A stretch of 64,000 bases of DNA, taken from contig CAIVRE010000017.1 in NCBI GenBank assembly GCA_903908245.1, positions 133-64,132 on the forward strand, in the 5' to 3' direction. Shown in pieces: positions 4,000-17,188 of the stretch. The notes beneath the pieces are model-generated. The model was not told where the DNA came from. It searched no databases and worked only from the letters and a program-made list of their open reading frames with translations. The position numbers and the translations under genes were made by a program. This DNA comes from Candidatus Omnitrophota bacterium (lineage in GTDB: Bacteria > Omnitrophota > Gorgyraeia > Zapsychrales > Fredricksoniimonadaceae). Numbering within the stretch: the stretch's first letter is position 1; every line of letters starts with the position of its first letter.

Positions 4000-4285
4000 G
4001 GAATCCGGGATCATTCTGGTCATTGTGATCACTTTTATCCTGATGATGAGTATCACGATGGTCGGGGTATTCTCCAGGAATGCGTCCACATCGCTTACCC
4101 CGATCGAGCAGATCAAGCGCTCCAAGGCCGAGATCCTGGCCAAAGCAGGGTATTGGGATGCTTATTCACGCTTAAGTTCGGGGCTTGCGTTAGCCAATAA
4201 AGTTGTATGGCTGGATAATATTACATATAATATTGATTTTTACAGGACCGGGTCCAAAATCGAAGTGAATGTCACATATCCGTAA
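3974..4285 (+). CDS. hypothetical membrane protein (GspK/PilX-like N-terminal helix, no prepilin cleavage motif)
   Basis: 103 aa. The hydrophobic N-terminus SGIILVIVITFILMMSITMVGV resembles a pseudopilin transmembrane segment but lacks the G/FTLIE motif. It overlaps the previous gene by 26 nt. Confidence 0.4.
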   Translation: MMLIKPKNKESGIILVIVITFILMMSITMVGVFSRNASTSLTPIEQIKRSKAEILAKAGYWDAYSRLSSGLALANKVVWLDNITYNIDFYRTGSKIEVNVTYP

Positions 4286-4305
4286 CCATTTTAATTTGAA
4301 ACTGT

Positions 4306-4334
4306 TTGACAAAGGTTGGCCGATAGTCTTTAAT
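4306..4334 (+). promoter_or_regulatory. putative sigma70 promoter for pil operon: TTGACA-N17-TTTAAT
   Basis: Consensus -35 TTGACA at 4306-4311 and -10-like TTTAAT at 4329-4334. They lie about 24 nt upstream of the pilM start at 4358. Confidence 0.4.
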
Positions 4335-4357
4335 AATTTAAATGGATCTATTCTTTA

Positions 4358-5968
4358 ATGGTCAATAATAAAAAACTAGGGATCTGTTGGGGCAATGCCG
4401 GCATAAGCCTGGTTGAGCTCAATAAAGACATCGCCGTCAGTTCGACGTTCGTGCCTTTTAATGATGTTGACCGCGACTCCAGGCCTGGCATCCGGGATCT
4501 GAGCGCGGATCTCAGGTTGCTTGAAAACCTGCAAAGGGCCTTGCGCTCCGGTTCTTTCTCAGTAGGCAATGCGTTCTTCTCCCTTCCGTCCAAAGATATT
4601 ATCGTTCGCTGGTTCATTATTCCCTGGGTCAAGGCAGAAGAGATCCAGGGCATGGTGGCGTTCGAAGCCAAGAAGTATATCCCTTTTCCTTTGGAAGATC
4701 TTTTTTTCAACTATTATCCGACAACGATCACCAAGGATGGCGCCAGGCAGATCGGGATAGCCTTGACCGCCATCCGCAAAACACAATATGAGCATTACTG
4801 TAATGTCCTGCTCCAGGCCGGTGTGAACGTGGTTTACAGTGAACCGTCGGCGATGAGCCTTTTGCGTTCGCTGGTGTTCCGCAAGCTGATCAATACCGAG
4901 AAGGTCAGCGGGATCCTTGTCGCACGGGAAGATTCCTGCGAGATCGCTGTTGTTTCCAAAGGGTTTGTACGGTTCATCCGTGACTTCTCGCTTCAGTCGG
5001 CGCAGACTTCCAGTGAATCAAAAGATGATGACTTCTTTCGCCTGAAGTTGTTCAATGAAGTCAAAATGTCGCTGGATTTCTTCTCGCGGAACAACGCGAC
5101 ACCGGAAGTGGAACGGATCGTTGCGATCTCGTCAGGAATAAATCCGTCATTCCTGGAGGGGATGCACGAGGACCTCGGCCTTCCTGTTGATACCCTGGTG
5201 CCTGAACAAATACTTGAAAAGGGTAATAATACTACGCTCGTTGATCTGGGGTATGTCCGGGCTTTTGGTGCGGCCCTTTCCGGAGCTGTGCCCGCGGTCA
5301 TTGATTTTAATCTAAGCGAGGGGAATGTTCATGGCGGCCAGAAAAAGCCGGAACGCGTCAAGACGTTCAGCATACCTCCGCAGGCTCTTTTGATCGCGGC
5401 GGTCGCGTGCGGATGCCTTGCGCTTCTGGCGCTCAGCTGGTGGTGGATGAACGACCAGCTTGCGAAGAAACAATCGCTTAAAGTGGAAGTTTCTTCCCGG
5501 CTTGGCCGGTATCTTGAGATACCGAAAGAAGATATTGACAATAAAGTCGCATTATTGACGAGCAAGATCAACGCGATCAAGAGTTTGTCGTTGAAAAGTT
5601 CACTGGCCCCGTTCTTTGTGGATCTTGTGACTTTATTGCCCAAAGAGGCCTGGCTTGATTCGGTCGAGATCTCTTATGACAGCACCAATCCGGGAAGAGG
5701 TGCAGCGTCGGGGAAATATGCGCGTTCCAAGAAACTCCTGGCGGCGGATTATTATATTGTCAAGTATTCTGCGCAAATGACCATTTCAGGTTTTGTTTTT
5801 CTGGGGGACACTAATGCGGAATTCAATGTCATCAATCAGTTCGTTGAAACGCTCAAGAATGCGGCCCAGGTCAAACGGTTCTTTTCCGATATTAAATTAA
5901 AATCCTTGCAGACAACAAACAGCGGCCCGAAACAAACAATAACCGCGTTCACGATAGAGTTCCAATGA
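4358..5968 (+). CDS. pilM: type IV pilus assembly protein PilM fused to PilN
   Basis: 536 aa. The N-terminal ~320 aa is an actin-like ATPase fold typical of PilM (LGICWGNAGISLVEL start, compare GIDIGSSSIK). A single TM helix (LLIAAVACGCLALLALSWWW) is followed by ~190 aa of coiled coil plus a PilN-like domain. Confidence 0.8.
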   Translation: MVNNKKLGICWGNAGISLVELNKDIAVSSTFVPFNDVDRDSRPGIRDLSADLRLLENLQRALRSGSFSVGNAFFSLPSKDIIVRWFIIPWVKAEEIQGMVAFEAKKYIPFPLEDLFFNYYPTTITKDGARQIGIALTAIRKTQYEHYCNVLLQAGVNVVYSEPSAMSLLRSLVFRKLINTEKVSGILVAREDSCEIAVVSKGFVRFIRDFSLQSAQTSSESKDDDFFRLKLFNEVKMSLDFFSRNNATPEVERIVAISSGINPSFLEGMHEDLGLPVDTLVPEQILEKGNNTTLVDLGYVRAFGAALSGAVPAVIDFNLSEGNVHGGQKKPERVKTFSIPPQALLIAAVACGCLALLALSWWWMNDQLAKKQSLKVEVSSRLGRYLEIPKEDIDNKVALLTSKINAIKSLSLKSSLAPFFVDLVTLLPKEAWLDSVEISYDSTNPGRGAASGKYARSKKLLAADYYIVKYSAQMTISGFVFLGDTNAEFNVINQFVETLKNAAQVKRFFSDIKLKSLQTTNSGPKQTITAFTIEFQ

Positions 5969-5981
5969 GCCCAGGGGCATA

Positions 5982-6620
5982 ATGGTAAAGTTCAATTTTG
6001 ATGACACGAATGCGTATGGCGGTGTAGGAAAGTTCGGCGGGAAAAGTGCGCCTTCTGCACTTCCCAAACTTACGCTTAAGGATCTTAAAGATCTTGCGTT
6101 CAAGTACAAGGTCGAAACCGCTTGCGCGGGTGCTGTTCTTGTAACGATCGTCATCATCTGGCCGTTCTGTGCCATCCAGATGGGAAAGATCAGCGTTCTG
6201 GCCAATGATATTCAGGTGATGACAGATAAAGAAAAACCGATCCAGGATGTCGATAATCTTTCCAAAGAAGCAAAGACCCTGCTTGACGGTGTGCCGGAAT
6301 CTTTACCGGAGAACCGTTTTATTACCCAATTGACATCGCTGGCCAATAAACGTAATGTTACCGTAACAGCCATCTCACCGCCGGCATCCAAAGACAACGG
6401 TTTTTTCGGCCGGATAAGCACTCAGCTTTCATGTTCCGTGAATGGGTTTAAGAATGCGCTGCTTTTTATTAATGACATTGAACAAGCTCCATATGCCTTG
6501 AAAGTGGATTCCTGGAGTGTACGGCCTTCCAGTCTTCCTGATGCCAAAGGGCCGGGGGATGATTCGGTAAAACTTGACATGACGGTTATCGTGTCTTCTA
6601 TTGAGCTATTAGGAAAATGA
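5982..6620 (+). CDS. pilO: type IV pilus assembly protein PilO
   Basis: 212 aa with an N-terminal TM helix, a coiled coil and a C-terminal domain. It lies between the pilMN fusion and pilP. Confidence 0.65.
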   Translation: MVKFNFDDTNAYGGVGKFGGKSAPSALPKLTLKDLKDLAFKYKVETACAGAVLVTIVIIWPFCAIQMGKISVLANDIQVMTDKEKPIQDVDNLSKEAKTLLDGVPESLPENRFITQLTSLANKRNVTVTAISPPASKDNGFFGRISTQLSCSVNGFKNALLFINDIEQAPYALKVDSWSVRPSSLPDAKGPGDDSVKLDMTVIVSSIELLGK

Positions 6621-7096
6621 AAAAGATGATCGATCGTAATCCATGGACTTTGTTTTGGCTGACAGGAATTTTGACGGCTTTTATATTTTTCCGTGTGTCC
6701 GAAGGCTTTGCCGCCACGACACAGAAACCGGGAGTTGTCGGAGCGATAGAGCAGGCGATCCATGCCTTGATCGATCCTTTTAAGACAAAAGTAAAAGCAC
6801 CGGAACCGGTACCGGAACCTACGCCGCCGCCTGCGCCGCCTACGCCGCCTCCACCGCCTCCGCCGCCGCCGCCGCCGCCGGTAGTAGATCCGCCCAAATT
6901 GGCCCTGACCGGCATTATTTACAATGCGGCGCGCCCCATGGCGCTATTGAACGGAGAGGTAGTGGAACAAGGGCAAACGATCACCATCCACGAGGGGGAT
7001 GTCGCGGTCACGAAAATAAACAAAAACAATATCCAGGTCCAGTATAAAAATACAGACTTCGTCATTGCTATTACAGATACAACCCGGGGGGAATGA
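6617..7096 (+). CDS. pilP: type IV pilus assembly lipoprotein-like PilP with Pro-rich linker
   Basis: 159 aa with an N-terminal signal/TM segment, a (P/T/A)-rich linker including P12, and a C-terminal beta domain (LTGIIYN...ALLNGEVVEQGQTI) typical of PilP. Its stop overlaps the pilQ start. Confidence 0.7.
   Translation: MKKMIDRNPWTLFWLTGILTAFIFFRVSEGFAATTQKPGVVGAIEQAIHALIDPFKTKVKAPEPVPEPTPPPAPPTPPPPPPPPPPPPVVDPPKLALTGIIYNAARPMALLNGEVVEQGQTITIHEGDVAVTKINKNNIQVQYKNTDFVIAITDTTRGE
6860..6880 (+). repeat. (CCG)7 perfect trinucleotide tract inside pilP linker, flanked by degenerate GCC/CCG units (~6820-6885)
   Basis: Directly visible as ccgccgccgccgccgccgccg in frame, encoding Pro7. Confidence 0.9.
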
Positions 7097-8589
7097 TGAT
7101 CAACTTGCGTATGATGCCGTTCTTTTTTCTTTCTTTTGTAATGCTCTCCGGGCCTGTAATGGCAAGCCAGGAAGGAACGTCCGGCTTTGTACTTCCTCAA
7201 TATTCCCAGAAACTTTCTCTGGATTTCAAGAGTGCCGACCTGAAAGATGTCCTTAAGGCGCTTTCAAAACAGATCGGGGCGAACTTTATTCTCAATAAGG
7301 ATGTGGCCCCTGATATCAAGATCACTGTTTATCTGGAAAATGTCCCGGTAGAAGAATCCCTGAACCAGGTCCTATTGGCCAATGATCTTATTTATGAGTA
7401 CAATGAATCAATGAATCTCTTTATTGTAAAAACAAAACCGGTGGCGCTAGAGACGACCATTACCCGGATATTCGCGTTGAGGTATGCTTCCGTCGATTCC
7501 TCGAAAATGAAGACCACTGTGGCCGCCGGATCCGGAGCCGCAGCTCCAGCTGCTTCCGGCGGAGGTTCGCTCACCGCAGCGATCTCTTCTGTATTGACCA
7601 AGAATGGCAAGGTCGTTGATGATACCCGCACGAACAGCCTTGTTATCACCGATGTTGAAACAAATTTTCCAGCGATCGAACGGATGATCGCCAGGCTTGA
7701 TATCCCGGTCCGCCAGGTGGTCATTGAAATGGAAATGCTGGATGTTTCCACCAGCGTCCTGGATAAACTTGGTTCCAATATTAATTTGAATGCCCATATT
7801 AACAATGAGACCAAGGGGAGTGTTTTCCCCTGGAGGACCAACCGGGTTACAGAGCTGAATTTAACGCAAACCAATACTTTTTCTTCCGGGACTCTGAATT
7901 TTGCCAACTCCATGCTGGTGCTGGATTTCTTAAAACAACAGTCCTCAACAAGGACTTTGGCACGCCCGCGCATCGTTACACCGGACAATGAGACCGCGAC
8001 GATCCAGATCACAACGAATGAAGTAATAGGCGGTAAAAAGACTGATGCAACAAGCACTTCTGCTGCCACTGTAGCCCTTGAGCGTTATGAGACAGGCGTT
8101 TCTTTAACCGTTACACCGCAGGTCAACGCATTGACAAATGAGATATTATTGTCTATTGCCCCCAAAGTTATAGATGCCGGGACTATACAGACCATTATGA
8201 TTGATGGCACCTCCACTGAATATAAAAACCCGGAGGAGCGCAGTGTTAATATCACGGTACGAGTGGAGAATGGAAAGACCGCCGTCATCGGAGGATTATT
8301 GCGCTACCAGGACAACAGTGTTAATTCCAGTGTCCCGATATTAAGCAAGATCCCCTTGATCGGATTCTTTTTTAAACATAAAGTGGTAAACAAAGCCGAT
8401 CGCGAACTGGTCGTTTTTCTCACCCCGCGCGTTCTTGATCCGAATCAGCCGATTTCGGTGGATCCCAACAATAAATTTGCTCGTCCAAAAAGCTTGCGTG
8501 AACAACTGGCGCCGGATCGGGAGCAAACCGCCCCGGATATCCGCTCGGGCCTTATTGATCGCGAAATGGACAAGCTCAACGGGTTTTAA
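7093..8589 (+). CDS. pilQ: type IV pilus secretin PilQ (compact, no AMIN domains)
   Basis: 498 aa with a signal peptide. The C-terminal secretin signature is VPILSKIPLIGFFFKHKVVNKADRELVVFLTPRVL. Confidence 0.85.
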   Translation: MMINLRMMPFFFLSFVMLSGPVMASQEGTSGFVLPQYSQKLSLDFKSADLKDVLKALSKQIGANFILNKDVAPDIKITVYLENVPVEESLNQVLLANDLIYEYNESMNLFIVKTKPVALETTITRIFALRYASVDSSKMKTTVAAGSGAAAPAASGGGSLTAAISSVLTKNGKVVDDTRTNSLVITDVETNFPAIERMIARLDIPVRQVVIEMEMLDVSTSVLDKLGSNINLNAHINNETKGSVFPWRTNRVTELNLTQTNTFSSGTLNFANSMLVLDFLKQQSSTRTLARPRIVTPDNETATIQITTNEVIGGKKTDATSTSAATVALERYETGVSLTVTPQVNALTNEILLSIAPKVIDAGTIQTIMIDGTSTEYKNPEERSVNITVRVENGKTAVIGGLLRYQDNSVNSSVPILSKIPLIGFFFKHKVVNKADRELVVFLTPRVLDPNQPISVDPNNKFARPKSLREQLAPDREQTAPDIRSGLIDREMDKLNGF

Positions 8590-8599
8590 AAGGATAACT

Positions 8600-10336
8600 A
8601 TGGCACGTCTTCGTTTGGGCGAAAGATTGATCAAGCAGGGGCTTATCACCGAAGCGCAGCTGCAGGAAGCGCTCGAAGAACAGAAAACAGAGAAGATCCA
8701 TATTGGCGAGATCCTTGTCAATAAAGGGATACTGAAAGAGGAAGACCTGGCCGCGGCCATTGCCTCCCAGTTGCTTATTCCGTATGCTTCGCGCGCGTCA
8801 GGAATGCTTAACCCGCAACGCCAGCAGAGCCTTGAAAAACTTATTCCTTATGAATTCGCCAAGGAGCATTTGGTCCTTCCGCTGAACCGCAACATGAATT
8901 CGCTGACCTGCGGGATCTTCAATCCTTTCGACCTGATCATGATCGACAATTTGAAGAAGATCACCAATTGCGAGATCAATTTCGTTATTGCCACCAAGAG
9001 CGACCTGCTTAAGACCATCCTTGAGTTCTACGGCAACGTGGCCGGAGACTCAAAGGCCGGCGGAAGCGTGCTTTGGGGCGAAGCGCTGCAACGTTCCCGG
9101 GATATATCGCCGGCGAGCAGCGCGGCGGTATCCACCGATGATGCCACCGAGTCAGAGCTTAGCCTGGACAAAGTCATCGCAAGGGCCGAAGAGGCTCCGG
9201 TCATCAAGCTGGTGGACCTGATCATCCGCCAGGCCATTGATGAACGGGCGAGCGATATCCATATCGAACCTTTCAAGGACAAAGTTGAGGTGCGCTATCG
9301 TATCGACGGAGAGTTGTATCAGATCCCACCGCCGGCGAAACATTTACACCTGCCGATCGTGTCCCGCATCAAGATCCTAGCCAAACTGGATATCGCCGAG
9401 AAACGTCTGCCGCAAGACGGGCGTATTTCCGCAAAACTGGAAGACCGCACGGTTGACCTGCGCGTATCATCCCTGCCTACGGTTTGGGGTGAAAAGATCG
9501 TCATGCGTATCCTGGACAGCGAGGCGATCAAATTGGACCTGGTAACGCTTGGTTTTGAGCCAAGCCAGCTCGAGATCATCCGCAAAGCGCTTAAAGTGCC
9601 CTACGGGCTCCTTTTTGTCACAGGGCCGACAGGCAGCGGAAAATCCACCACTCTTTATTCGGCTTTGACCGAAGTGCTCGACCCCACCAAAAACATCATG
9701 ACGGCCGAAGACCCGGTCGAATTCCGTATTGAAGGGGTCAATCAGGTCCATGTAAGGCCTGATATTGGGTTCTCTTTTGCCGAGGCTCTGCGCGCTTTCC
9801 TGCGCCAGGACCCTGATATCATCATGGTAGGTGAAGTGCGTGACCTCGAGACTGCCCAGATCTGTACACGAGCGGCCCTGACCGGGCATTTTGTGCTGAG
9901 TACACTGCATACGAATGACGCGGCATCGGCCATAACACGTTTGCTGGATATCGGGGTCCCCAGTTATCTTTTAACACCGTCCCTGACGATGATCATCGCT
10001 CAGCGGCTCGGGCGCAAGCTTTGCCCTCATTGCAAAGAGCCTTATGAGCCCAAACCAGAGGAACTCGGGGAGATCAAGCTCAAGGCCGACCTTATTTACA
10101 GGGCCAAAGGTTGCGACAAATGTGCGCATACGGGGTATAAAGGCCGGATGGTCGTTGCGGAGGTCCTTTTGATCGACGAAGAACTCCGTCGCCTGATCGG
10201 CAAGAATGCCGGTTACAGCGACCTGAAAGATGCCGCCCGCAAGAACGGGATGATGACTCTTTTTGAAGCAGGCATACGGAAAGTTGAAGCAGGCATCACC
10301 AGCCTTGAAGAGATATTTGGTGTGACCGCGGGATAA
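8600..10336 (+). CDS. pilB: type IV pilus assembly ATPase PilB (GspE family)
   Basis: The start ATG at 8600 is preceded by AAGGA. The protein has a T2SSE_N-like N-terminus, Walker A GPTGSGKSTT, Asp and His boxes, and a tetracysteine motif CPHC...CDKC. The ORF-track extension to 8435 is rejected. Confidence 0.9.
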   Translation: MARLRLGERLIKQGLITEAQLQEALEEQKTEKIHIGEILVNKGILKEEDLAAAIASQLLIPYASRASGMLNPQRQQSLEKLIPYEFAKEHLVLPLNRNMNSLTCGIFNPFDLIMIDNLKKITNCEINFVIATKSDLLKTILEFYGNVAGDSKAGGSVLWGEALQRSRDISPASSAAVSTDDATESELSLDKVIARAEEAPVIKLVDLIIRQAIDERASDIHIEPFKDKVEVRYRIDGELYQIPPPAKHLHLPIVSRIKILAKLDIAEKRLPQDGRISAKLEDRTVDLRVSSLPTVWGEKIVMRILDSEAIKLDLVTLGFEPSQLEIIRKALKVPYGLLFVTGPTGSGKSTTLYSALTEVLDPTKNIMTAEDPVEFRIEGVNQVHVRPDIGFSFAEALRAFLRQDPDIIMVGEVRDLETAQICTRAALTGHFVLSTLHTNDAASAITRLLDIGVPSYLLTPSLTMIIAQRLGRKLCPHCKEPYEPKPEELGEIKLKADLIYRAKGCDKCAHTGYKGRMVVAEVLLIDEELRRLIGKNAGYSDLKDAARKNGMMTLFEAGIRKVEAGITSLEEIFGVTAG

Positions 10337-10339
10337 TCC

Positions 10340-11572
10340 ATGCCAAAATTCCTTGTTACATTTAAAGATGAATCAGGAAAAAGCAAGACCACGGTGTTGG
10401 ACGCGAAGGACAGCAATGACGCTGTTTCAAGCGTACAGACCCAGGGAGTCTTTGTTGTTGCCATTCAACCGCTGGAGGAAGCGCAAAAAAATGCCCAATC
10501 TTCCTCCAAAAAGGCCGCGCAGCGGAATTATACGCATAACAAGGCCAAACTGCAGGACATTGTTGTTTTTGCCCGTCAATTAGCCACCATGCTCGAAGCG
10601 GGTGTTCCTCTTTTAAGAAGCCTTACCGTTATCCTCGACCAGCTTGAAAGCCGTGAACTTTCCATGGTTGTTGCCGAGGTGCGCAGTGATGTGGAACAGG
10701 GGATGGCCTTCAGCAAAGCCCTGGACAAACACCCCAAGGTCTTCGGTCAGTTCTGGGTGAGCCTCGTCGAGGTCGGAGAAGCGTCGGGGACAATGCCCCG
10801 CGTCCTGAAGAAACTGACGGAATACGCGGAAGAGAGCGTCAAGTTCCAGTCGCAGTTGATCGGGGCGTTGATCTATCCGGCGGTGCTGACAGTGATCGTT
10901 TTCCTGGCGGTCCTAGCGTTCGCTTTGTTCATCGGGCCTATCTTCGAGAAGGTCTTCAAGAACCTGAACATGAGTTTGCCCGGCATTACCATCATGATGA
11001 TGGCGCTGTTCAAATTCATTCAGACGCAGTTCCTTCTCATCGTTGCCGCGATCACCGGGATGGTCTTCGCTTTCAAGGCGTATGTCAAAACGTCCGTCGG
11101 CCGCTGGCAAACAGAAATGTTCCTTTACAATCTTCCTACGGTCGGGAATATTTTCCGGCTTGTTGTTGTTGAGAAATTCACCTCCCAGATGGCTATCCTT
11201 ATTGAAAGCGGTGTGCCGATCCTTTACGCCCTGGAAATATCAGAGCGTCTCGTCGATAATATGGTCTGCGGCGCAGTATTAAAGGATGTGCGCAACGCCG
11301 TGCGGGAAGGAAAGCTCCTGGCCGACGCCCTGGAAAAAAGTTCTTTTTTCCCGTCGATCTCGGTTCAGATGATCCGCGTGGGGGAAGAGACGGGCGAATT
11401 GTCCAAAATGCTCGGCCATGTGGCCGTTTTTTACAAAGGGCAGGTGGAGGACTTCATGAGGAATATTTCCGTCCTCATTGAACCCGTCATGCTGGTGGTT
11501 ATGGGTGGTGTCATCGGGACCATGGTCATTGCAATGTTCCTGCCGCTTTTGTCGATCTCTACTGGCGGATAA
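10340..11572 (+). CDS. pilC: type IV pilus platform protein PilC (GspF family)
   Basis: 410 aa with two GspF repeats and three TM segments. It lies immediately downstream of pilB. Confidence 0.85.
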   Translation: MPKFLVTFKDESGKSKTTVLDAKDSNDAVSSVQTQGVFVVAIQPLEEAQKNAQSSSKKAAQRNYTHNKAKLQDIVVFARQLATMLEAGVPLLRSLTVILDQLESRELSMVVAEVRSDVEQGMAFSKALDKHPKVFGQFWVSLVEVGEASGTMPRVLKKLTEYAEESVKFQSQLIGALIYPAVLTVIVFLAVLAFALFIGPIFEKVFKNLNMSLPGITIMMMALFKFIQTQFLLIVAAITGMVFAFKAYVKTSVGRWQTEMFLYNLPTVGNIFRLVVVEKFTSQMAILIESGVPILYALEISERLVDNMVCGAVLKDVRNAVREGKLLADALEKSSFFPSISVQMIRVGEETGELSKMLGHVAVFYKGQVEDFMRNISVLIEPVMLVVMGGVIGTMVIAMFLPLLSISTGG

Positions 11573-11594
11573 ATAAAACATTTTTTTATTTGTT

Positions 11595-11623
11595 TTGTAT
11601 GGCTTGTGATTCTTTAGTATAAT
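11595..11623 (+). promoter_or_regulatory. putative sigma70 promoter of pilin paralog 1: TTGTAT-N17-TATAAT
   Basis: Perfect -10 TATAAT at 11618-11623, with TTGTAT 17 nt upstream. It is embedded in a TATTTGTTTTGTA...ATAATTAGATAA motif shared with paralog 2. Confidence 0.45.
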
Positions 11624-11697
11624 TAGATAATGTGGAGATTTAGCCGTTTTCCTTATGATCCAACAACCATAGTGAATATCATTGATATGGAGTAAGT

Positions 11698-12150
11698 ATG
11701 AATATAAAAGGTTTCACACTCATCGAAATCATCATCGTCATCGTTATTTTAGGCGTTCTGGCAACATTGGCGTTGCCGCGTTTGACAGCACAGATCGACG
11801 CATCTGAAGCCGCGGAAGCCATGCAATTCTTCGGAGCGATCAAAAGAGCAGCGATCGGTTGTTACGATGGCGCCGGTAATTTCTCGGTTTGCCGTACTTC
11901 GGCGGAATTAGGCGTACCCATTCCGGCGGCGACCAGGTTCCTGTATACACAGAGCAACCCGGATACCGCTTCGGCATCTATCCAGTGGTGGGCGCGTTCA
12001 ACACGTAATACCGCCAATTTTATTATGATGCAAATTGTAGGCAATACCGGGATCACAACGTTTGCGGCAACTGCAAATCCATTCCTGGGGATCGTTAATA
12101 AAACAGGGTCGTCAACTGTTGCTATTGCGGTATCGACGCTGCCTTATTAA
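11698..12150 (+). CDS. pilA: type IV major pilin (PilA-like) paralog 1
   Basis: 150 aa with the prepilin leader and cleavage motif MNIKG|FTLIEII, Glu at +5, and a hydrophobic N-terminal helix. GGAG lies upstream of the ATG. Confidence 0.85.
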   Translation: MNIKGFTLIEIIIVIVILGVLATLALPRLTAQIDASEAAEAMQFFGAIKRAAIGCYDGAGNFSVCRTSAELGVPIPAATRFLYTQSNPDTASASIQWWARSTRNTANFIMMQIVGNTGITTFAATANPFLGIVNKTGSSTVAIAVSTLPY

Positions 12151-12229
12151 CTTTGATATTTAGAATGTATATTTTTTAAAATTACTTATTATCATTAATT
12201 TCTTAAAAATAAATTATTCATTATTTGTT

Positions 12230-12258
12230 TTGTAAACGTAAACCTTTTGTGGCATAAT
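12230..12258 (+). promoter_or_regulatory. putative sigma70 promoter of pilin paralog 2: TTGTAA-N17-CATAAT
   Basis: Same architecture and flanking motif as the promoter of paralog 1. Confidence 0.4.
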
Positions 12259-12340
12259 TAAATAAGGTAGTGTTAATTTTTCATTGAAAAGGACGATGTT
12301 TATAGATTGCATATATTTACACTATAAAAAAGGAGAAAGT

Positions 12341-12796
12341 ATGAATAAGAAAGGTTTTACACTCATCGAAATCATCATCGTCATCGTTATTTTAGGCGTT
12401 CTGGCAACGTTGGCGTTGCCGCGTTTGACAGCACAGATCGACGCATCTGAAGCCGCGGAAGCCATGCAGTTTATGGGAGCGATCAAAAGAGCGGCGATCG
12501 GTTGTTATGATGGCGCCGGTAATTTTTCGGTTTGCCGGACTTCAGCGGAATTGGGCGTACCCATTCCGGCGGCGGCTCGGTTCACCTATACCCAAAGCAA
12601 TCCGGATACCGCTTCTGCGTCTATCCAGTGGTGGGCGCGTGCAACACGTAATACCGCAAACTTCGTTATGATGCAAATTGTAGGCAGCACCGGAACAACA
12701 ACTTTTGCGGCAAATGTCGGCGGTCCATTCTTGGGGATCATTAATAAAACAGGGTCTTCAACTGTTATTGTTGCAGTATCGACCCTTCCTTATTAA
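12341..12796 (+). CDS. pilA: type IV major pilin (PilA-like) paralog 2
   Basis: 151 aa, about 90% identical to paralog 1; the differences cluster in the C-terminal half. The start ATG at 12341 is preceded by AAAGGAG. The ORF-track extension to 12284 is rejected. Confidence 0.85.
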   Translation: MNKKGFTLIEIIIVIVILGVLATLALPRLTAQIDASEAAEAMQFMGAIKRAAIGCYDGAGNFSVCRTSAELGVPIPAAARFTYTQSNPDTASASIQWWARATRNTANFVMMQIVGSTGTTTFAANVGGPFLGIINKTGSSTVIVAVSTLPY

Positions 12797-12810
12797 TTTT
12801 TTTAAGGAAA

Positions 12811-12844
12811 AGAGGGCGTTCTTCGGGACGCTCTCTTTTTTTTC
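12811..12844 (+). terminator. rho-independent terminator after pilin paralog 2
   Basis: A 9-bp GC-rich stem (AGAGGGCGT / ACGCTCTCT) is followed by T9. It ends 4 nt before the start of the next pilin gene. Confidence 0.7.
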
Positions 12845-12847
12845 TAA

Positions 12848-13240
12848 ATGGACAAGAAGGGCTTTACAATAGTAGAAGTTATCGTTGTTATAGTCATTCT
12901 TGGCGTTATGGCCTCATTTGCCTTGCCGAAGCTCTTTGCGCAGAAAGAAAAGGGGATATTCTCGGAAGGCGTATCTGCGGCACAGACACTGTTCTCTGCT
13001 CAACAAAGGTATTTTCTGGATCATAATCCCAATTATGACACCAGTGCTCTATGTACGGCACTGGATGTTTCTATAGCACCGGTGAACTTTAACATCAATT
13101 GTAATACGGCAGGCTATGTTGCAGCGGTTGTTCGCAAGAACGGCCCTGTATATACGATCAGGACTACGAGTGCCGGAGTATATGACTGTCCTTCATGCTC
13201 CGGAAGTCTGGTATATCTTAATGCACAGGTCCCACATTGA
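12848..13240 (+). CDS. prepilin-type minor pilin/pseudopilin
   Basis: 130 aa with the motif MDKKG|FTIVEVIVVI and five Cys in the C-terminal half. Confidence 0.75.
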   Translation: MDKKGFTIVEVIVVIVILGVMASFALPKLFAQKEKGIFSEGVSAAQTLFSAQQRYFLDHNPNYDTSALCTALDVSIAPVNFNINCNTAGYVAAVVRKNGPVYTIRTTSAGVYDCPSCSGSLVYLNAQVPH

Positions 13241-13250
13241 TGAGGCGCGT

Positions 13251-13649
13251 ATGATCAATAAAAAAAGTTTTACTATGGTCGAATTGATCATCGTTATGGC
13301 CATTATTAGTGTAATGGCGGCTTTTGGTGTCCCCAGCTTTACCAAAGCCATGTCCCGGGCCAGGGCAAGAGACGCCCAGAATAACCTGACGATTATTCAT
13401 GCATCGCAAGCCTTGTACAGGGCAAATTTGGCAAGCAACCTCCGCGGCGCAAACCTCGGCGCTCTGAACGCAGCGTTGTCATTAAATCTTGTGTCCACTG
13501 GCGGCACTACGTATGCCTGTAATGACGGGATAGCTCCTGCTTCGCCAACCACTTGCGTCGCTACGGCAGCGGGAGGGGCAGCGGTTTTTCAAACGACATT
13601 GACCCTTGCGACAGGGGCTGTTGTGTGCGCAGGCACTGATTGTCCGTGA
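13251..13649 (+). CDS. prepilin-type minor pilin/pseudopilin
   Basis: 132 aa starting at an internal ATG with MINKKS|FTMVELII and four Cys. The ORF-track extension to 13116 overlaps the previous gene and is rejected. Confidence 0.75.
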   Translation: MINKKSFTMVELIIVMAIISVMAAFGVPSFTKAMSRARARDAQNNLTIIHASQALYRANLASNLRGANLGALNAALSLNLVSTGGTTYACNDGIAPASPTTCVATAAGGAAVFQTTLTLATGAVVCAGTDCP

Positions 13650-13656
13650 ACGGTCT

Positions 13657-13998
13657 ATGGGTAAAAAGTCTGCGTTCTCTTTAGTTGAAGTGATCGTGGC
13701 CGCGGTGGTATTCACTCTTTCTGCCGCCGCCATATTCGGAGCCCTCAGGTCGCTGGCCCAGCGGAGGGTTTCAGATTCTTCAACGGATGTTCGAGGCGTT
13801 GCTTACGGTCAGGTATTCCTCGAATCCTTGCGAAATGAAGTTTATGCCAACCGTTGGGGAGATGCGGCAAGTCCGCTTAAGCCTGGCGGCCCTTATAATA
13901 TGCCCACCTACGCTGAATTTCCAGGATACAACGGGACATATACGGTTGTGGATGACAGCGGATCCCGTAAAGTAACGGCCAATATCAATACTCCATAA
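13657..13998 (+). CDS. prepilin-like protein with atypical (Ala at -1) leader
   Basis: 113 aa beginning MGKKSAFSLVEVIVAAV. It has the prepilin-like N-terminal helix with Glu+5 but Ala instead of Gly before Phe. Start ATG at 13657. Confidence 0.6.
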   Translation: MGKKSAFSLVEVIVAAVVFTLSAAAIFGALRSLAQRRVSDSSTDVRGVAYGQVFLESLRNEVYANRWGDAASPLKPGGPYNMPTYAEFPGYNGTYTVVDDSGSRKVTANINTP

Positions 13999-14007
13999 AA
14001 GGCTTTT

Positions 14008-14508
14008 ATGAAAGGGATCACCCTTATTGAGTTGCTTGTATCCGTCGTGATCATAAGTATCATGATGGGAGGGATATTCGCGGCGAGTCAGGCGGTCCTG
14101 AACATTGACCGGGGGGAAACAGCACGATCAGCCGTATTCATTCGCGCACAGTCTATTGTCAGCACCATAGAAAGTGATGCCATTAACGCGGAAGGTATGG
14201 GGACGGGAACCTCTTCGGGAGTGTGGTTCAATAATCCCACGGATTTTTGTTTTCGGAACGATCCCGCCGGCGTAAATCCATGGGCTTGTTATTCAAGATT
14301 GGCCGGAAACGTATTATATAGATGTTTACGGGCGACCACTGGTGCCTGCACCACTTTTGATACGGCGATCGGTGTTTTGGATAACCCTGTCGCGGCAAGG
14401 TTCACCAGTGGTGTTTTTACAATGCCGATCGTTGTGAGCGATGCGACACTTATTAATTCTGCAGTTACGCTCGATGTTGTTGTATACCCTGAAAAAAACA
14501 GTTTCTGA
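14008..14508 (+). CDS. prepilin-type minor pilin/pseudopilin
   Basis: 166 aa with the motif MKG|ITLIELLVSVVI. Confidence 0.75.
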   Translation: MKGITLIELLVSVVIISIMMGGIFAASQAVLNIDRGETARSAVFIRAQSIVSTIESDAINAEGMGTGTSSGVWFNNPTDFCFRNDPAGVNPWACYSRLAGNVLYRCLRATTGACTTFDTAIGVLDNPVAARFTSGVFTMPIVVSDATLINSAVTLDVVVYPEKNSF

Positions 14509-14510
14509 CC

Positions 14511-15260
14511 ATGCACCGTTTTTATTGCGCCGCCCTTTTACAACAACAGGAACCGCTTGTTATTGATGACCCCGATGAGGTTCATCATATAGCGCGGGTC
14601 CTTCGTTTGCGCCCTGGGGACGCAGTGGAGCTGATCAATGGCCAAGGGGCTTTGGGTGCAGCCCGGATCATTGGTATTTCAAAACAGCACATTCAAGTGG
14701 AATTATTGGAAGAGGTCCGGTCTTTTTTACCTTCCCCGGTAAAGATCATTCTGGCCTGTGCTTTACCCAAACGGTCAAAGTTCGAAGATATCATTGAAAA
14801 ATGCACACAACTCGGCGTTGATGAAATAGTCCCTCTTGTCACAAAACGTACCGAGATCGTCCCTTCCAAAGAGGCTGTCTTGCGCATGGGAATACGATTC
14901 AACAAAGTGGCTCTGAGCGCCTCCAAGCAATGCCAGCGATTATGGTTCCCGGTAGTATACCCCGCCATGGCGCTGGAGACAGCGGTGGACCTGTTCGCGA
15001 AAGAAAGCAATGCATTATATTTCCCCTGGCTTGAAGGCAAGCGAACATTATTAAAAGAGGCTTTGGACCGTCGTGAACCCCGGCCGGGAGCCGTTGTTTT
15101 CTTCATTGGGCCTGAAGGCGACTTTTCTCCGGAGGAAGCAGATTACACGATACGTAAAGGCGCTGTCCCTGTTTCATTGGGCGAGACCGTGCTGAGGGTC
15201 GAGACCGCCGCGGTCGCCGTGATATCCTATGCGCATTTTATTATTGGAGGATCGGATTGA
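14511..15260 (+). CDS. rsmE: 16S rRNA (uracil1498-N3)-methyltransferase RsmE
   Basis: 249 aa with the RsmE N-terminal PUA-like region and a C-terminal SPOUT domain (FFIGPEGDFSPEE). Confidence 0.85.
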   Translation: MHRFYCAALLQQQEPLVIDDPDEVHHIARVLRLRPGDAVELINGQGALGAARIIGISKQHIQVELLEEVRSFLPSPVKIILACALPKRSKFEDIIEKCTQLGVDEIVPLVTKRTEIVPSKEAVLRMGIRFNKVALSASKQCQRLWFPVVYPAMALETAVDLFAKESNALYFPWLEGKRTLLKEALDRREPRPGAVVFFIGPEGDFSPEEADYTIRKGAVPVSLGETVLRVETAAVAVISYAHFIIGGSD

Positions 15261-17188
15261 AGTGGCCGATGCCCTTTTCATCGTCTTTTAAGAAAGCTGG
15301 AGCTGTTTCGGCCTTGCTGATAGCCGCTATTCTTGTTTATTCTCCAGTCTTCAAAGCAGACTACATCAATTGGGATGATCCCTCTCATGTGCAGGAGAAC
15401 CCGTTTATTGTTAACGGGGACCGTTCGTTCTTATCCAGGGTGTTCCTAAAAGAGGAAACAGCGAACAGGACGTATATCCCGTTAACGGCGGTATCGTTCT
15501 GCCTGGAAAAACAGTTCTTCGGGTTAACCTCTTTCAGTTCCCATCTGATCAATTTGACCCTGCATCTTTGTAATATCGTTCTTATCCTTCTTTTGGGGCT
15601 ACAATTTGGCTTGACTTTTATGGCAGCGTACATCGCGGCCGCTCTTTTTGCGTTCCATCCGATGCATGTCGAGTCGGTCGCCTGGGTGACAGAACGCAAG
15701 GATGTTTTATACAGCTTCTTTTATCTTCTCTCCTTGGTCTTTTATTGCCGTTTTCAGGATACCCGCCGGGGAAGCTTTTATATCGGCGCGCTGGGAATGG
15801 CGATCCTTAGCCTGTTGTCCAAGCCAATGGCGTTAAGTCTGCCGTTGATCATGTTCCTGGTCGATTATATCAGGTCCAGGCCTTTGACCCGGAGGTCCTT
15901 GCTGGAAAAAGCCCCGTTCGCTGCATCGGCCTTCATGGTCGCAGGGATCACGTATCTGATGAATACCCGTGTTGTCGGGTTTTCATTCCCCTCATCATTC
16001 CTGGTCTGGGACTGGACGTTCTTCTTTTATTTAAAGAAGTTCTTTGTCCCGGTCGATCTGTTGGCTTTGTATGATGTTGCAACACCGGTCAATATCCACA
16101 ATCCCGAATATTGGATGGCGGCACTCGGGATATTCGTGATGATCCTGATGCTGTTCAGGAACAGAAGATCCCGCTGGTTTGTTTTTGCTGTTGGATCTTA
16201 TACGGCGTCAATATTCTTTCTCTGTCGATTTGACATCCTTGACCCGACTCTCGTGGCAGATCGTTTCATGTATCTTCCAAGCGCGGGGATATGTTTCCTG
16301 ATCGGATTTTATTTTGACAAGATGCTGCGTGAGCCGCGATCATTGATCAGGGCGGCCGCTGTATTCTTCATCCCGCTATTATTCGCCGGATTAATGCTCG
16401 GCACATGCCAGCAGGTGAAATATTGGCGGAATTCCTGGACATTCTGGAGCCACATCCTGGAATTCAGGCCACGCCTGTATTTCGCACAATATATGCGCGC
16501 CCAGTCACTCTCCGACGAAAAAGCTTACAGGAAGATCGCGCCTTACTTTGAACAACTTGTTTATTGTCAGTTGCCATCCGTCCCGACGACCCCATTCCAG
16601 AAGTCGCTGGTGCAGGGCAAACTAAAATATTTCAGGTCTTTGTTCGCTTTGCGCTGGTATCATCATGAATTATCCCGTCCGCTCTGGAGAAAAAGCCGTT
16701 TTCAGGAGATCCCGCTTGTTTCCACTTATTCGGGGTATATCAATGAACTGCTTTTTATAGGGAATTATAATAAGGCCCTGGCGTTCACTTTAAAGAAGAT
16801 CGCCAAATTCCCGGCCAAGACACATGATTTTATTATAATGGGACGATGCTATACCAATCTGGGGCTTTATGCCAAGGCCTTTGAATCCTTATCCATGGCC
16901 ATCGAATCTGATCCCAATAACTATGAGGCATTCCTGGCACGAGGGGCCGTAGCGGTCCTGCTGGGGGATATTGGAAGAGCCATCGACGACAGTAAGCGGT
17001 TATTGATCCTGGATCCCAAAGCCATGAGCGGCTATGACCTTTTGTTCAATGTTTATGTGACGGCGAATCAGCTGGAAGAAGCGAAGAAAGTGCTCGACCA
17101 GGAAATGGTTTTGTGGCCTTATGACCCCCAGGTGTCCCGGCATTACAGTACCTATACAAGGGCAGTCCATTCGAGGGATATCCCGTGA
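15257..17188 (+). CDS. TMTC-like GT-C membrane protein (DUF1736-type motif) with C-terminal TPR repeats
   Basis: 643 aa with about 10 TM helices. The conserved loop motif is FHPMHVESVAWVTERKDVLYSFFYLL. The C-terminal ~200 aa are TPR. Its start overlaps the rsmE stop. Confidence 0.7.
   Translation: MKWPMPFSSSFKKAGAVSALLIAAILVYSPVFKADYINWDDPSHVQENPFIVNGDRSFLSRVFLKEETANRTYIPLTAVSFCLEKQFFGLTSFSSHLINLTLHLCNIVLILLLGLQFGLTFMAAYIAAALFAFHPMHVESVAWVTERKDVLYSFFYLLSLVFYCRFQDTRRGSFYIGALGMAILSLLSKPMALSLPLIMFLVDYIRSRPLTRRSLLEKAPFAASAFMVAGITYLMNTRVVGFSFPSSFLVWDWTFFFYLKKFFVPVDLLALYDVATPVNIHNPEYWMAALGIFVMILMLFRNRRSRWFVFAVGSYTASIFFLCRFDILDPTLVADRFMYLPSAGICFLIGFYFDKMLREPRSLIRAAAVFFIPLLFAGLMLGTCQQVKYWRNSWTFWSHILEFRPRLYFAQYMRAQSLSDEKAYRKIAPYFEQLVYCQLPSVPTTPFQKSLVQGKLKYFRSLFALRWYHHELSRPLWRKSRFQEIPLVSTYSGYINELLFIGNYNKALAFTLKKIAKFPAKTHDFIIMGRCYTNLGLYAKAFESLSMAIESDPNNYEAFLARGAVAVLLGDIGRAIDDSKRLLILDPKAMSGYDLLFNVYVTANQLEEAKKVLDQEMVLWPYDPQVSRHYSTYTRAVHSRDIP

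Follow-up and report, generated by a model that had tools for sequence, protein, structure and literature searches.

Tandem major-pilin paralogs with predicted promoters of their own in a type IV pilus-like gene cluster of an Omnitrophota bacterium

Bacteria can carry multiple pilin sequences in several arrangements. In Neisseria, recombination among pilin-related sequences alters the expressed pilin, and the pilS cassettes are silent, having neither a promoter nor the 5' coding region. Multiple pilA paralogs are found in Pseudomonas stutzeri (pilAI/pilAII), Synechocystis (pilA1/pilA2) and Xylella (pilA1/pilA2). Thermus thermophilus has two major pilins, PilA4 and PilA5 (PDB 6xxd, 6xxe, 8qqj), which use one machinery to form two filament types. 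Stigmatella aurantiaca carries adjacent pilA paralogs, STAUR_6449/6450, and all of its paralogs are transcribed (PMC3776727). In Streptococcus sanguinis, pilE1 and pilE2 encode the two major pilins of a single heteropolymeric type IV pilus (PMC6497953, bioRxiv 10.1101/2023.06.15.545089). Tandem major-pilin paralogs are already known in other bacteria, and a further pair is unsurprising to a pilus specialist. The Omnitrophota are uncultivated nanobacteria, believed to attach to hosts or prey by their type IV pili, and clusters like the one described here have been classed as type 4a pili (PMC10066038).

The window analysed here, a 64,000-nt stretch of an Omnitrophota contig, contains two prepilin genes on the forward strand, located where a sequence-only reading of this DNA had put them: paralog 1 at 11698-12150 (150 aa) and paralog 2 at 12341-12796 (151 aa). 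The leader of the first is MNIKG, followed by FTLIEIIIVIVILGVLATLALP, with Phe at position 1 and Glu at position 5 of the mature protein; that of the second is MNKKG, followed by FTLIE. The two genes share 398 of 453 aligned DNA columns (88%), so that the near-identity proposed earlier holds while the exact figure is slightly lower than the 90% or so then given, and the proteins agree at 136 of 151 positions (90%). A single indel, of one codon at codon 125, separates the copies, and 13 of the 15 amino-acid differences lie past residue 75 (binomial p=0.007), which bears out the claim that substitutions and indel are concentrated in the C-terminal half. The mature pilins are identical over residues 1-39 and differ once within residues 1-73, polymerisation helix included, and the genes have identical tracts of 50 nt and 59 nt in common. 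Copy-specific tryptic peptides are FLYTQSNPDTASASIQWWAR for gene 1 and FTYTQSNPDTASASIQWWAR for gene 2. Direct repeats 635-646 bp apart span the upstream region as well as the gene, and a tandem duplication of a unit of about 640 bp (promoter, UTR and gene), giving two complete prepilin paralogs, is supported. No inverted repeats or invertible-element design were found.

The pair resembles S. sanguinis pilE1/pilE2 in having two adjacent, nearly identical major pilin genes in one pil locus, with identical N termini and the differences in the globular domain. Both S. sanguinis genes are complete and expressed, and their co-assembly is experimental, whereas co-assembly of the two pilins described here is expected from the identity of their helices. 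In contrast to the Omnitrophota, S. sanguinis is a monoderm Firmicute without a secretin, the globular domains are unrelated in sequence, and each Omnitrophota copy has apparently kept its own promoter. Other pilA paralogs are similar in their adjacency and conserved N-terminal helices, but have in most cases drifted much further apart and taken on distinct functions, whereas the Omnitrophota pair is young and nearly identical. The pilin family profile matches the Thermus PilA4 and PilA5 structures, with N-terminal sequence similarity. Those two pilins are very different proteins found in different filaments; the polymerisation helices of the present pair are identical, and separate filaments are therefore unlikely.

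The 55 differences between the copies include 31 synonymous and 19 non-synonymous changes. The pair has a dS of about 0.35 and an NG86 dN/dS of 0.17 over the whole gene, rising to 0.27 in its last third. Both genes are under purifying selection, and there is no sign of positive selection; an earlier suggestion of antigenic diversification is, as far as positive selection is concerned, not supported by these values, and the substitutions occupy columns that are variable across the whole family. The locus is like Neisseria pilE/pilS in having multiple pilin sequences with a conserved 5' part and a variable 3' part. It differs from pilS in that both copies are complete, promoter-bearing and under purifying selection, and a dedicated recombination-initiating element was not seen. 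Assignment to the pilE/pilS silent-cassette type was rejected since each copy has the promoter block, a Shine-Dalgarno sequence, an ATG and a full ORF.

Both proteins have the features of the prepilin superfamily, namely a class III signal peptide with a short basic leader, Gly-1, Phe+1, Glu+5 and a hydrophobic helix of about 20 residues, and pilins 1 and 2 scored 29.2 and 33.2 bits against Pfam N_methyl (cut-off 21.2) and 30.5 and 34.3 bits against TIGR02532 (cut-off 16.3). The pilin fold, a long alpha1 helix on an antiparallel beta-sheet, is present, and an AF2 model of pilin 1 (pLDDT 81.8) has pilin topology. In size and context the genes correspond to type IVa major pilins, with a leader of 5 aa, mature proteins of 145 and 146 aa and a position directly after PilC; an own promoter, here a predicted one, and an own terminator were counted as a further type IVa trait. 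The C-terminal disulfide-bonded D-region of type IVa pilins is absent, the cysteines being only at 55 and 65. As had been noticed from the sequence, this pair lies close to the N-terminal helix: Cys55 and Cys65, the only cysteines in either pilin, sit where alpha1 ends and in the next loop. Both are invariant in 34/34 family members, and the pair is characteristic of the family, not special to the two genes described here. The T2SS major pseudopilin GspG (TIGR01710) was rejected as an identity: its model, with a cut-off of 88.85 bits, aligns to residues 4-51 alone and gives the two pilins 40.7 and 41.7 bits.

The exact pilin 1 protein is present on 8 public contigs. For gene 2, ORF lists begin too far upstream (170 aa), and so do the public gene calls on 5 long contigs (166 aa); the call of 151 aa is found on 1 contig. 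The longer leader (166/170 aa) was rejected because in-frame stops occur in gene 1 and in the relatives L004 (second copy), L006 and L010. These stops, together with the short leader before FTLIE and the gene's own Shine-Dalgarno sequence, place the start of gene 2 at the ATG at 12341; the proximal Shine-Dalgarno sequence and an M-N-K-K-G leader are conserved in all the relatives compared.

There are exactly two copies of TATTTGTTTTGTA in the 64 kb, one at 11587-11599 and the other at 12222-12234. Predicted promoter 1 (11587-11623, forward strand) consists of this T-rich element, a -35-like TTGTAT (11595-11600), a 17-nt spacer and the -10 hexamer TATAAT (11618-11623); its -35 is weak, with a 3/6 consensus match. 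Predicted promoter 2 (12222-12258, forward strand) has the same element, a -35-like TTGTAA (12230-12235), a 17-nt spacer containing a TG and the -10 hexamer CATAAT (12253-12258), and was listed by a promoter scan with an extended -10. The pattern TTGTTTTRTR-N15-19-YATAAT has two matches in 64 kb, both upstream of the pilins, against 0 expected. The same motif block had been reported before each gene, and it was indeed found there and nowhere else in the window; the 17 nt then placed between motif and -10 is correct when counted from the -35 hexamer, the gap from the motif itself being 18 nt. The upstream regions are 60% identical compared with 53+/-2% for shuffles, the identity being concentrated in the -35 and -10 blocks, while the spacer between the block halves and the UTRs have drifted to near-random similarity. 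Retention of a sigma-70-like promoter footprint by each copy is supported, and both blocks, identified as consensus matches, probably function as promoters. With upstream regions that have diverged, the two genes may differ in their regulation instead of simply adding to each other's output. A sigma-54 promoter was rejected on inspection, as a GG-N10-GC match is absent from both upstream regions.

The -10 lies 74 nt before the ATG in gene 1 and 82 nt before it in gene 2. Degenerate, distal SD-like elements lie on the forward strand at the predicted 5' ends of the two mRNAs, GTGGAGA at 11632-11638 (-66 from the ATG) and AAGGTAG at 12264-12270 (-77); in relatives, AAGGAGG was observed at -72 to -86 from the pilin ATG. 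The proximal Shine-Dalgarno sequences, read from the same strand, are GGAG at 11689-11692 for gene 1 and AAGGAGA at 12330-12336 for gene 2. Both pilin UTRs are unstructured on folding (z +0.9 and -0.2). No known RNA element was found in these long 5' UTRs using Rfam: a permissive search of 11400-13000 gave sub-threshold chance matches only, and a search of six related loci at the gathering threshold gave no matches.

A terminator was found after the second gene only, in agreement with the sequence-only reading. It is an intrinsic terminator of the array (12804-12845, forward strand) with a GC-rich stem, a UUCG loop and a U8 tail; the hairpin has a dG of -23.8 kcal/mol and a z of -6.7, and 0/200 shuffles fold as well. 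A simple pattern scan missed it. The AT-rich spacer after gene 1 (12151-12221, forward strand) has no intrinsic terminator (fold z +0.54), and the whole intergenic region between the pilins has a GC content of 20%. A decayed terminator after gene 1 was undetectable by homology of the 3' flanks (45% identity vs 51% for shuffles).

The pair lies within a type IV pilus-like cluster, all on the forward strand, in the order PilM-like protein, secretin, PilB, PilC, two pilins and four minor pilins. The PilM-like assembly protein (4358-5968, 536 aa, a GspL-like length) matches Pfam PilM_2, with NCBIfam pilM and Amuc_1101 below cut-off. The PilQ/GspD-like secretin (7093-8589, 498 aa) matches Pfam Secretin, Secretin_N and STN, and in NCBIfam scores 186 bits as PilQ and 167 bits as GspD, both below cut-off. 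The PilB/GspE-like assembly ATPase (8600-10336) matches Pfam T2SSE with 462 bits and scores 631 bits as PilB and 591 bits as GspE in NCBIfam; it has an N-terminal MshEN c-di-GMP-binding domain, with a c-di-GMP motif score of 63 against a cut-off of 38. The PilC/GspF-like platform protein (10340-11572, 410 aa) matches Pfam T2SSF over two stretches and scores 336 bits as GspF and 302 bits as PilC in NCBIfam, both below cut-off. Downstream of the pair, minor pilin 1 (12848-13240, 130 aa, leader MDKKG before FTIVE, Pfam N_methyl) has no Shine-Dalgarno sequence, and its ATG is 4 nt past the terminator U tract. It is followed by minor pilin 2 (13251-13649, leader MINKKS before FTMVE, Pfam N_methyl and a class III signal peptide by motif scan), minor pilin 3 (13657-13998, 113 aa, a weak XpsI/GspI-like match) and minor pilin 4 (14008-14508, 166 aa, leader MKG before ITLIE, from profile searches). 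No PilT or other PilB paralog was found in the 64-kb window, and no PilD (peptidase A24) among the ORFs scanned in it. The order of ATPase, platform, major (pseudo)pilin and four small minor pilins is like that of a T2SS operon (GspG with GspH-K), and the short leader, length of about 145 aa and F1/E5 are like those of GspG. Unlike in a T2SS, there is a PilM-like protein in the cluster, and the ATPase scores best as PilB.

The sequence-only reading had proposed a search of relatives for the same duplication. The closest relative (L006, 74% aa identity) has one pilin copy in the same place, and tandem copies were found in other Omnitrophota, with two each in L004 and L018, three each in L005 and L014 and four in L032. 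In a neighbour-joining tree of the pilins each within-genome set is monophyletic, and since tandem copies always group by genome, the duplication is recurrent and lineage-specific. In the relatives checked, a terminator again stands behind the last copy only: L004 has none after its first copy and one after its second, as in the window, and the array of L005 ends in a strong terminator after copy 3. Nearly all matches in a scan of metagenome contigs were distant pilins, which gave no further information on copy number.

Taken as a whole, the locus is probably the product of a recent, lineage-specific tandem duplication of a whole major-pilin transcription unit in a type IV pilus-like (type IV filament) machine. 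Since the only terminator lies at the end of the array, transcripts begun at promoter 1 are predicted to run through both genes, and promoter 2 would contribute extra gene 2 transcripts. From the near-identical N-terminal 73 residues, use of the same prepilin peptidase and co-assembly in one filament are expected. The cell would then probably have more pilin at its disposal, and two slightly different globular domains would be mixed on the filament surface; an increased pilin dosage, with both copies expressed and a benefit from it, is plausible. That the two genes are instead alternative pilins, made under different conditions from diverged promoters to give alternative filament surfaces, seems improbable. 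The promoters do differ (TATAAT without TG and TTGTAT, against CATAAT with TG and TTGTAA), the near-random similarity of spacers and UTRs fits such a reading, and the two copies of L004 have quite different upstream architectures. Without a terminator after gene 1, however, transcription of gene 1 would always extend into gene 2. Both copies have kept their core promoter blocks, neither a regulator-binding repeat nor a sigma-54 motif is seen, and 90% identity with 15 substitutions only argues for a limited functional difference. A mis-assembled repeat, or a silent pilS-type cassette or pseudogene, is very improbable, even though some short assemblies have one gene only and many contigs break between the pilins, with ends at 12177-12270 in several public assemblies. 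Independent contigs (L001-L003, ending at 12218-12249, and L172, starting at 12177) overlap across the junction with 100% identity, and the duplication is therefore not the assembly artefact that would have undone the earlier claim. Pieces of the tandem come from samples ERZ1426827, ERZ27313102, ERZ27313089 and ERZ27313095. In addition, gene 2 with its own UTR is present on at least 5 contigs, of 50 kb or more, both copies have a signal peptide besides a full ORF, Shine-Dalgarno sequence and predicted promoter, the differences between them follow the purifying-selection pattern given above, and equivalent arrays exist in relatives.

The copies remain similar enough to recombine, and four short contigs (L088-L091, from samples ERZ18625568, ERZ18626558, ERZ18626419 and ERZ27313096) each carry a single hybrid gene, with promoter 1 and the 5' end of gene 1 joined in frame to the 3' end of gene 2 and its terminator. 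It is possible, but we think it rather unlikely, that the array is a pilin-switching device and not a plain dosage duplication, with unequal crossing-over and gene conversion yielding single-copy hybrid alleles (P0001) and copy-number variants in the natural population. The flanks of the hybrid contigs are 100% identical to the window, and the identical tracts of 59 and 50 nt each contain one of two distinct crossover points. Diagnostic SNPs at codons 6, 23 and 43 lie 50-60 nt apart. The dS is 0.14 in codons 1-50 and about 0.47 elsewhere (post-hoc Fisher p=0.02), and the 5' region has no intrinsic synonymous constraint, since it is saturated in the L004 pair; copies 1 and 2 of L005 have a patch with a dS of 0.03 flanked by 0.6, as expected after gene conversion. 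Against this, short-read assemblers are well known for wrongly collapsing A-R-B-R-C to A-R-C, and the loop (B) is demonstrably broken in other assemblies at the 20%-GC spacer (contig ends at 12177-12270), so that tip-clipping and collapse would come easily. The crossover site also follows contig naming style, the 59-nt tract being used in three 'scaffold' contigs and the 50-nt one in the 'k141' contig, and may thus reflect the assembler, while the 90% cluster, of 4 members only, holds no reciprocal hybrid or other variant. The earlier suggestion of recombination between the copies is thus favoured by the low 5' dS and the hybrids, and weakened by the possible collapse and by tract permutation tests on the window pair that were not significant (p 0.32 and 0.12). 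The hybrid contigs represent either a true unequal-crossover deletion or assembler collapse; a true deletion would mean that part of the population can do without the second copy.

The pilin duplication is real but fairly ordinary, and its kind recurs throughout the phylum. Pilin arrays break or collapse short-read assemblies, and gene callers mis-start the second copy, so pilin copy number in MAGs is probably under-counted. A more far-reaching view, which we put forward as speculation, is that the hybrids are real and that unequal recombination between expressed tandem copies repeatedly makes and deletes copies and produces chimeric pilins in natural populations. The genome-specific arrays of 2-4 copies would then reflect a birth-and-death or concerted-evolution cycle, driven by selection acting on the pilus with which these ultra-small and probably host-dependent bacteria attach. 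The independent amplification of pilins in many lineages, always as arrays with a terminal terminator, suggests that pilin supply or surface composition has repeatedly come under strong selection in the Omnitrophota.

The window contains a real and young tandem duplication of a complete major-pilin unit, in which both copies are intact and constrained and a single terminator lies at the end. As the sequence-only reading had described, two prepilin genes with class III signal peptides were found: gene 1 (11698-12150, forward strand) encodes 150 aa beginning MNIKG-FTLIE, and gene 2 (12341-12796, forward strand) encodes 151 aa beginning MNKKG-FTLIE. The start of gene 2 is called inconsistently, giving 166 aa in public records and 170 aa as an ORF (12284/12296-12796), and its true start is likely 12341. 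By codon alignment the genes are identical at 398 of 453 nucleotide columns (88%) and the proteins at 136 of 151 residues (90%), the DNA figure being slightly below the approximately 90% first given. The only indel is an additional codon in gene 2 at position 125, and 13 of the 15 amino-acid differences lie beyond residue 75 (binomial p=0.007), bearing out the reported concentration of substitutions in the C-terminal half; of the other two, one affects residue 45 and one the leader that is cleaved off. By the Nei-Gojobori method dS was 0.35-0.36, dN 0.06 and dN/dS 0.17, and dN/dS rose only to 0.27 in the last third of the pair. These low ratios place both copies under purifying selection, with no indication of diversifying selection in the whole gene or its last third. 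The duplicated unit takes in the upstream region, the repeat-finder segments being spaced 635-646 bp apart (11571-11599 and 12206-12234; 11689-11988 and 12332-12631; 12078-12154 and 12724-12800).

Across the 64 kb the sequence TATTTGTTTTGTA has exactly two occurrences, one upstream of each pilin gene, and the composite TTGTTTTRTR-N15-19-YATAAT had two matches in the window, both at the pilin pair, and none in 100 shuffles. In both copies 18 nt, and not the 17 nt originally counted, separate the motif from the -10 hexamer. Read as -35 hexamers, the predicted promoters are TTGTAT-17-TATAAT for gene 1 and TTGTAA-17-(TG)CATAAT for gene 2, the latter with an extended -10 in the promoter scan. Global alignment of the upstream regions gave 60% identity, compared with 53+/-2% for shuffled sequence, with the matches concentrated in three places: the T-rich block (13/13), the -10 region together with the start of the transcript (ATAATTArATAAkGT), and the Shine-Dalgarno (SD) sequence. 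The 17-18-nt promoter spacer has drifted, as has most of the UTR. This is the footprint that would be expected for a duplicated promoter still under constraint. The distance from -10 to ATG is 74 nt for gene 1 and 82 nt for gene 2, and neither 5' UTR folds better than shuffles or has an Rfam match. Gene 2 is followed by a strong hairpin and U8 (-23.8 kcal/mol, z -6.7 against shuffled sequence, UUCG loop), and no fold above shuffles follows gene 1 (z +0.5); the layout proposed earlier, with a promoter for each copy and the sole terminator after gene 2, is correct as a prediction from motif matches and folding. The first minor pilin (ATG 12848) lacks an SD and starts 4 nt past the terminator U tract (12804-12850), and the sole SD-like purine run before it, AAGGAAAAGAGGG, is the 5' arm of the terminator hairpin. 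Given this arrangement, minor-pilin expression would depend on terminator read-through and weak initiation.

The neighbouring genes form a compact type IV filament cluster, in the order 536-aa PilM-like protein, two small proteins, secretin, PilB/GspE-type ATPase, PilC/GspF platform, the two pilins, four small pilin-like genes (starts 12848, 13251, 13657 and 14008) and rsmE. Such Omnitrophota clusters have been described as type 4a pili that occur widely in the phylum and, in V. archaeovorus, are expressed (PMC10066038). Neither a PilT paralog nor a prepilin peptidase was found within the 64-kb window. We infer that genes 1 and 2 encode the major pilins from three features: their position as the first genes behind PilC, a strong promoter and terminator of their own, and the four minor-pilin-like genes that follow. 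The second of these has been called as 124 or 155 aa (13116/13275-13649), so that its class III signal peptide is truncated or lengthened; its true start is likely 13251. The assembly ATPase (8600-10336) has an N-terminal MshEN-type c-di-GMP-binding domain (63 bits, cut-off 38), which suggests that pilus assembly may be under c-di-GMP control. The PilM-like protein (4358-5968) and the secretin (7093-8589) matched the Akkermansia pilus-cluster families Amuc_1101 and Amuc_1098 below threshold, which hints at a machine of the PVC/Omnitrophota kind and not at a T4aP or T2SS of the classical proteobacterial kind. Directly after rsmE, at 15257-20542, are three large membrane and TPR proteins (643, 501 and 620 aa), the last of which matches the PMT_2 glycosyltransferase family below threshold. 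In two relatives (L004 and L006) rsmE is likewise followed by large genes in synteny, one or more of them with faint TPR matches; conceivably, these genes may act in glycosylation of pilin or the surface.

The duplication is not an assembly artefact. Collapsed or misjoined repeats, the alternative that the sequence-only reading itself had raised, are contradicted by the 55 nucleotide differences between the copies, which follow a coding-selection pattern, and by public contigs, eight of which carry the exact gene 1 protein and six gene 2. Three contigs (L001-L003) run from PilB/PilC through gene 1 and end at window 12218-12249, L172 corresponds to window 12177-15296 at 100% identity, and L087 begins at 12270, so that the junction is covered by overlapping contigs of independent assemblies. 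Five contigs of at least 50 kb carry gene 2 together with its own 5' UTR. The short contigs all end within the 20%-GC spacer (12177-12270), suggesting a coverage drop at this AT-rich sequence and not a repeat problem.

A fourth member of the 90% cluster, the 151-aa hybrid P0001, was found on four contigs from four samples (L088-L091), each with one pilin gene between PilC and the first minor pilin. The hybrid region (2715-3346 in L088, with counterparts in L089, L090 and L091) equals window 11573-12847 minus 643 bp, and its flanks are 100% identical to the window. Base-by-base alignment showed promoter 1, UTR 1 and the first gene 1 codons joined to the rest of gene 2 and the terminator, with the switch at codons 23-43 in three contigs and codons 6-23 in one; the two intervals coincide exactly with the stretches of 59 and 50 nt over which the paralogs are identical. 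Either these contigs carry a real deletion allele produced by unequal crossover, or a de Bruijn assembler has collapsed A-R-B-R-C to A-R-C. Collapse is especially likely where loop B is interrupted at the AT-rich spacer, a break that other samples demonstrably show. The crossover position tracks the contig naming style ('scaffold' for the three contigs, 'k141' for the fourth), and the records contain no reciprocal hybrid. We consider real recombinants doubtful, with a likelihood of roughly one-third. Between gene 1 and gene 2, dS was 0.14 in codons 1-50 and approximately 0.47 in the rest (post-hoc Fisher p=0.02), and permutation tests for an unusually long unchanged tract were not significant (p 0.32 and 0.12). 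Intrinsic constraint was rejected as the source of the low 5' dS because the same region is saturated in the L004 pair, where 27.5 of 35.8 synonymous sites differ. In the relative L005, dS between copies 1 and 2 was 0.03 in codons 51-100, flanked by 0.6, in what looks like a conversion patch. Exchange between the window copies is plausible on these sequence comparisons.

At the same position, the closest relative (L006, GCA_974330425.1; 74% aa identity) has one copy, and L004 (60-63% aa identity to the window genes) has two, which are 86% identical in amino acids and 73% in nucleotides, with saturated synonymous sites. Among more distant relatives, L005 has three copies packed 30 nt apart after rsmE, L014 three, L018 and L072 two each, and L032 four, three of them at 92-96% identity. 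The scaffold gap in L014, a run of N at approximately 4230-4400 between two of its copies, is another sign of pilin arrays disrupting short-read assembly. Several further pilin pairs share contigs, and at least two linked copies occur in 7 of the 17 loci with a strong family match. Each within-genome set is monophyletic in a neighbour-joining tree, and no orthology was detectable between copies 1 and 2 of the window and those of L004 (identities 0.60-0.63 in all four combinations), which points to repeated lineage-specific duplication, or to duplication followed by concerted evolution. The L004 pair (6001-7042) differs at approximately 84% of synonymous sites, which marks it as an old duplicate pair maintained either by strong constraint on the protein or through selection against recombination. 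No terminator follows its first copy (z +0.8) and a strong one follows its last (z -4.2); a strong terminator also follows the third L005 copy (z -3.1, from folding of the array end). A separate internal promoter is predicted in the window and is probably present in L004, and the copies in L005 and L032 are packed too tightly for one.

Of the models compared, only those for the generic prepilin N-terminal domain (Pfam N_methyl, TIGR02532) scored above their curated thresholds, and did so for both pilins; matches to GspG, PilA, ComGC and PpdD were confined to the N-terminal helix and lay far under cut-off. A 34-member family profile matched the solved type IVa pilins PilE, PilA, PpdD and Thermus PilA5 over the helix and part of the head, and GspG over the helix only; the globular part alone had no detectable relative among solved structures. 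An AlphaFold2 model from the family alignment (pLDDT 81.8) has pilin topology, with helix 8-59, short helix 68-71, four strands within 81-124 and short helix 129-135. In this model Cys55 is at the end of alpha1 and Cys65 in the following loop. Since both cysteines are invariant in 34 of 34 aligned members, the unusual position of the putative disulfide is shared by this Omnitrophota pilin family as a whole and does not set genes 1 and 2 apart. The family was placed in Candidatus Omnitrophota by the source names of homologues. One 57%-identical member (L007, DYOU01000012.1) is in a MAG labelled Candidatus Elulimicrobium (Patescibacteria group per NCBI), whereas every other close match bears an Omnitrophota label; misbinning, a wrong label or a transfer could account for this.

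A perfect SD-like AAGGAGG, in many cases GAAAGGAGGT, is also found in relatives at an almost constant position, -72 to -86 nt relative to the start codon of the major pilin; it is distinct from the real SD at about -10 (approximate sites of the element L004 6511, L006 5922, L010 1774, L012 4926, L016 4915 and L032 3967); L008 has AAGGAGA at -58. The window equivalents are degenerate, GTGGAGA at -66 (11632-11638) and AAGGTAG at -77 (12264-12270), and are located at the predicted transcript 5' ends. No conserved upstream ORF follows the element in the loci compared, and Rfam gave no match for it. In Bacillus, 5'-terminal 'STAB-SD' elements are mRNA stabilisers, and the distal element resembles these.

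Tandem or multiple major-pilin paralogs are already well known, occurring also in P. stutzeri, Synechocystis and Xylella. They have likewise been described in Stigmatella (PMC3776727). The nearest experimentally characterised analogue of the present pair is PilE1/PilE2 of S. sanguinis, whose identical N termini accompany assembly into one heteropolymeric filament and either of which suffices by itself for piliation, at a reduced level (PMC6497953). The Omnitrophota literature examined mentions type 4a pili and not pilin arrays. What is added here to the sequence-only reading is the independent recurrence of such arrays across Omnitrophota, the family-wide Cys55/Cys65, the hybrid contigs and the positionally conserved distal SD-like element. 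Three rival readings of the pair were weighed: variation through recombination, which is doubtful; differential regulation of the two copies, which is unlikely; and an artefact or silent cassette, which is very unlikely. In the arrangement we propose, both copies would be transcribed, gene 2 from promoters 1 and 2, and both prepilins would be processed by the same peptidase. The two pilins would be expected to co-polymerise, given that they share mature residues 1-39 and have a single difference across residues 1-73; this would raise the supply of pilin and give the filament a mixed surface.
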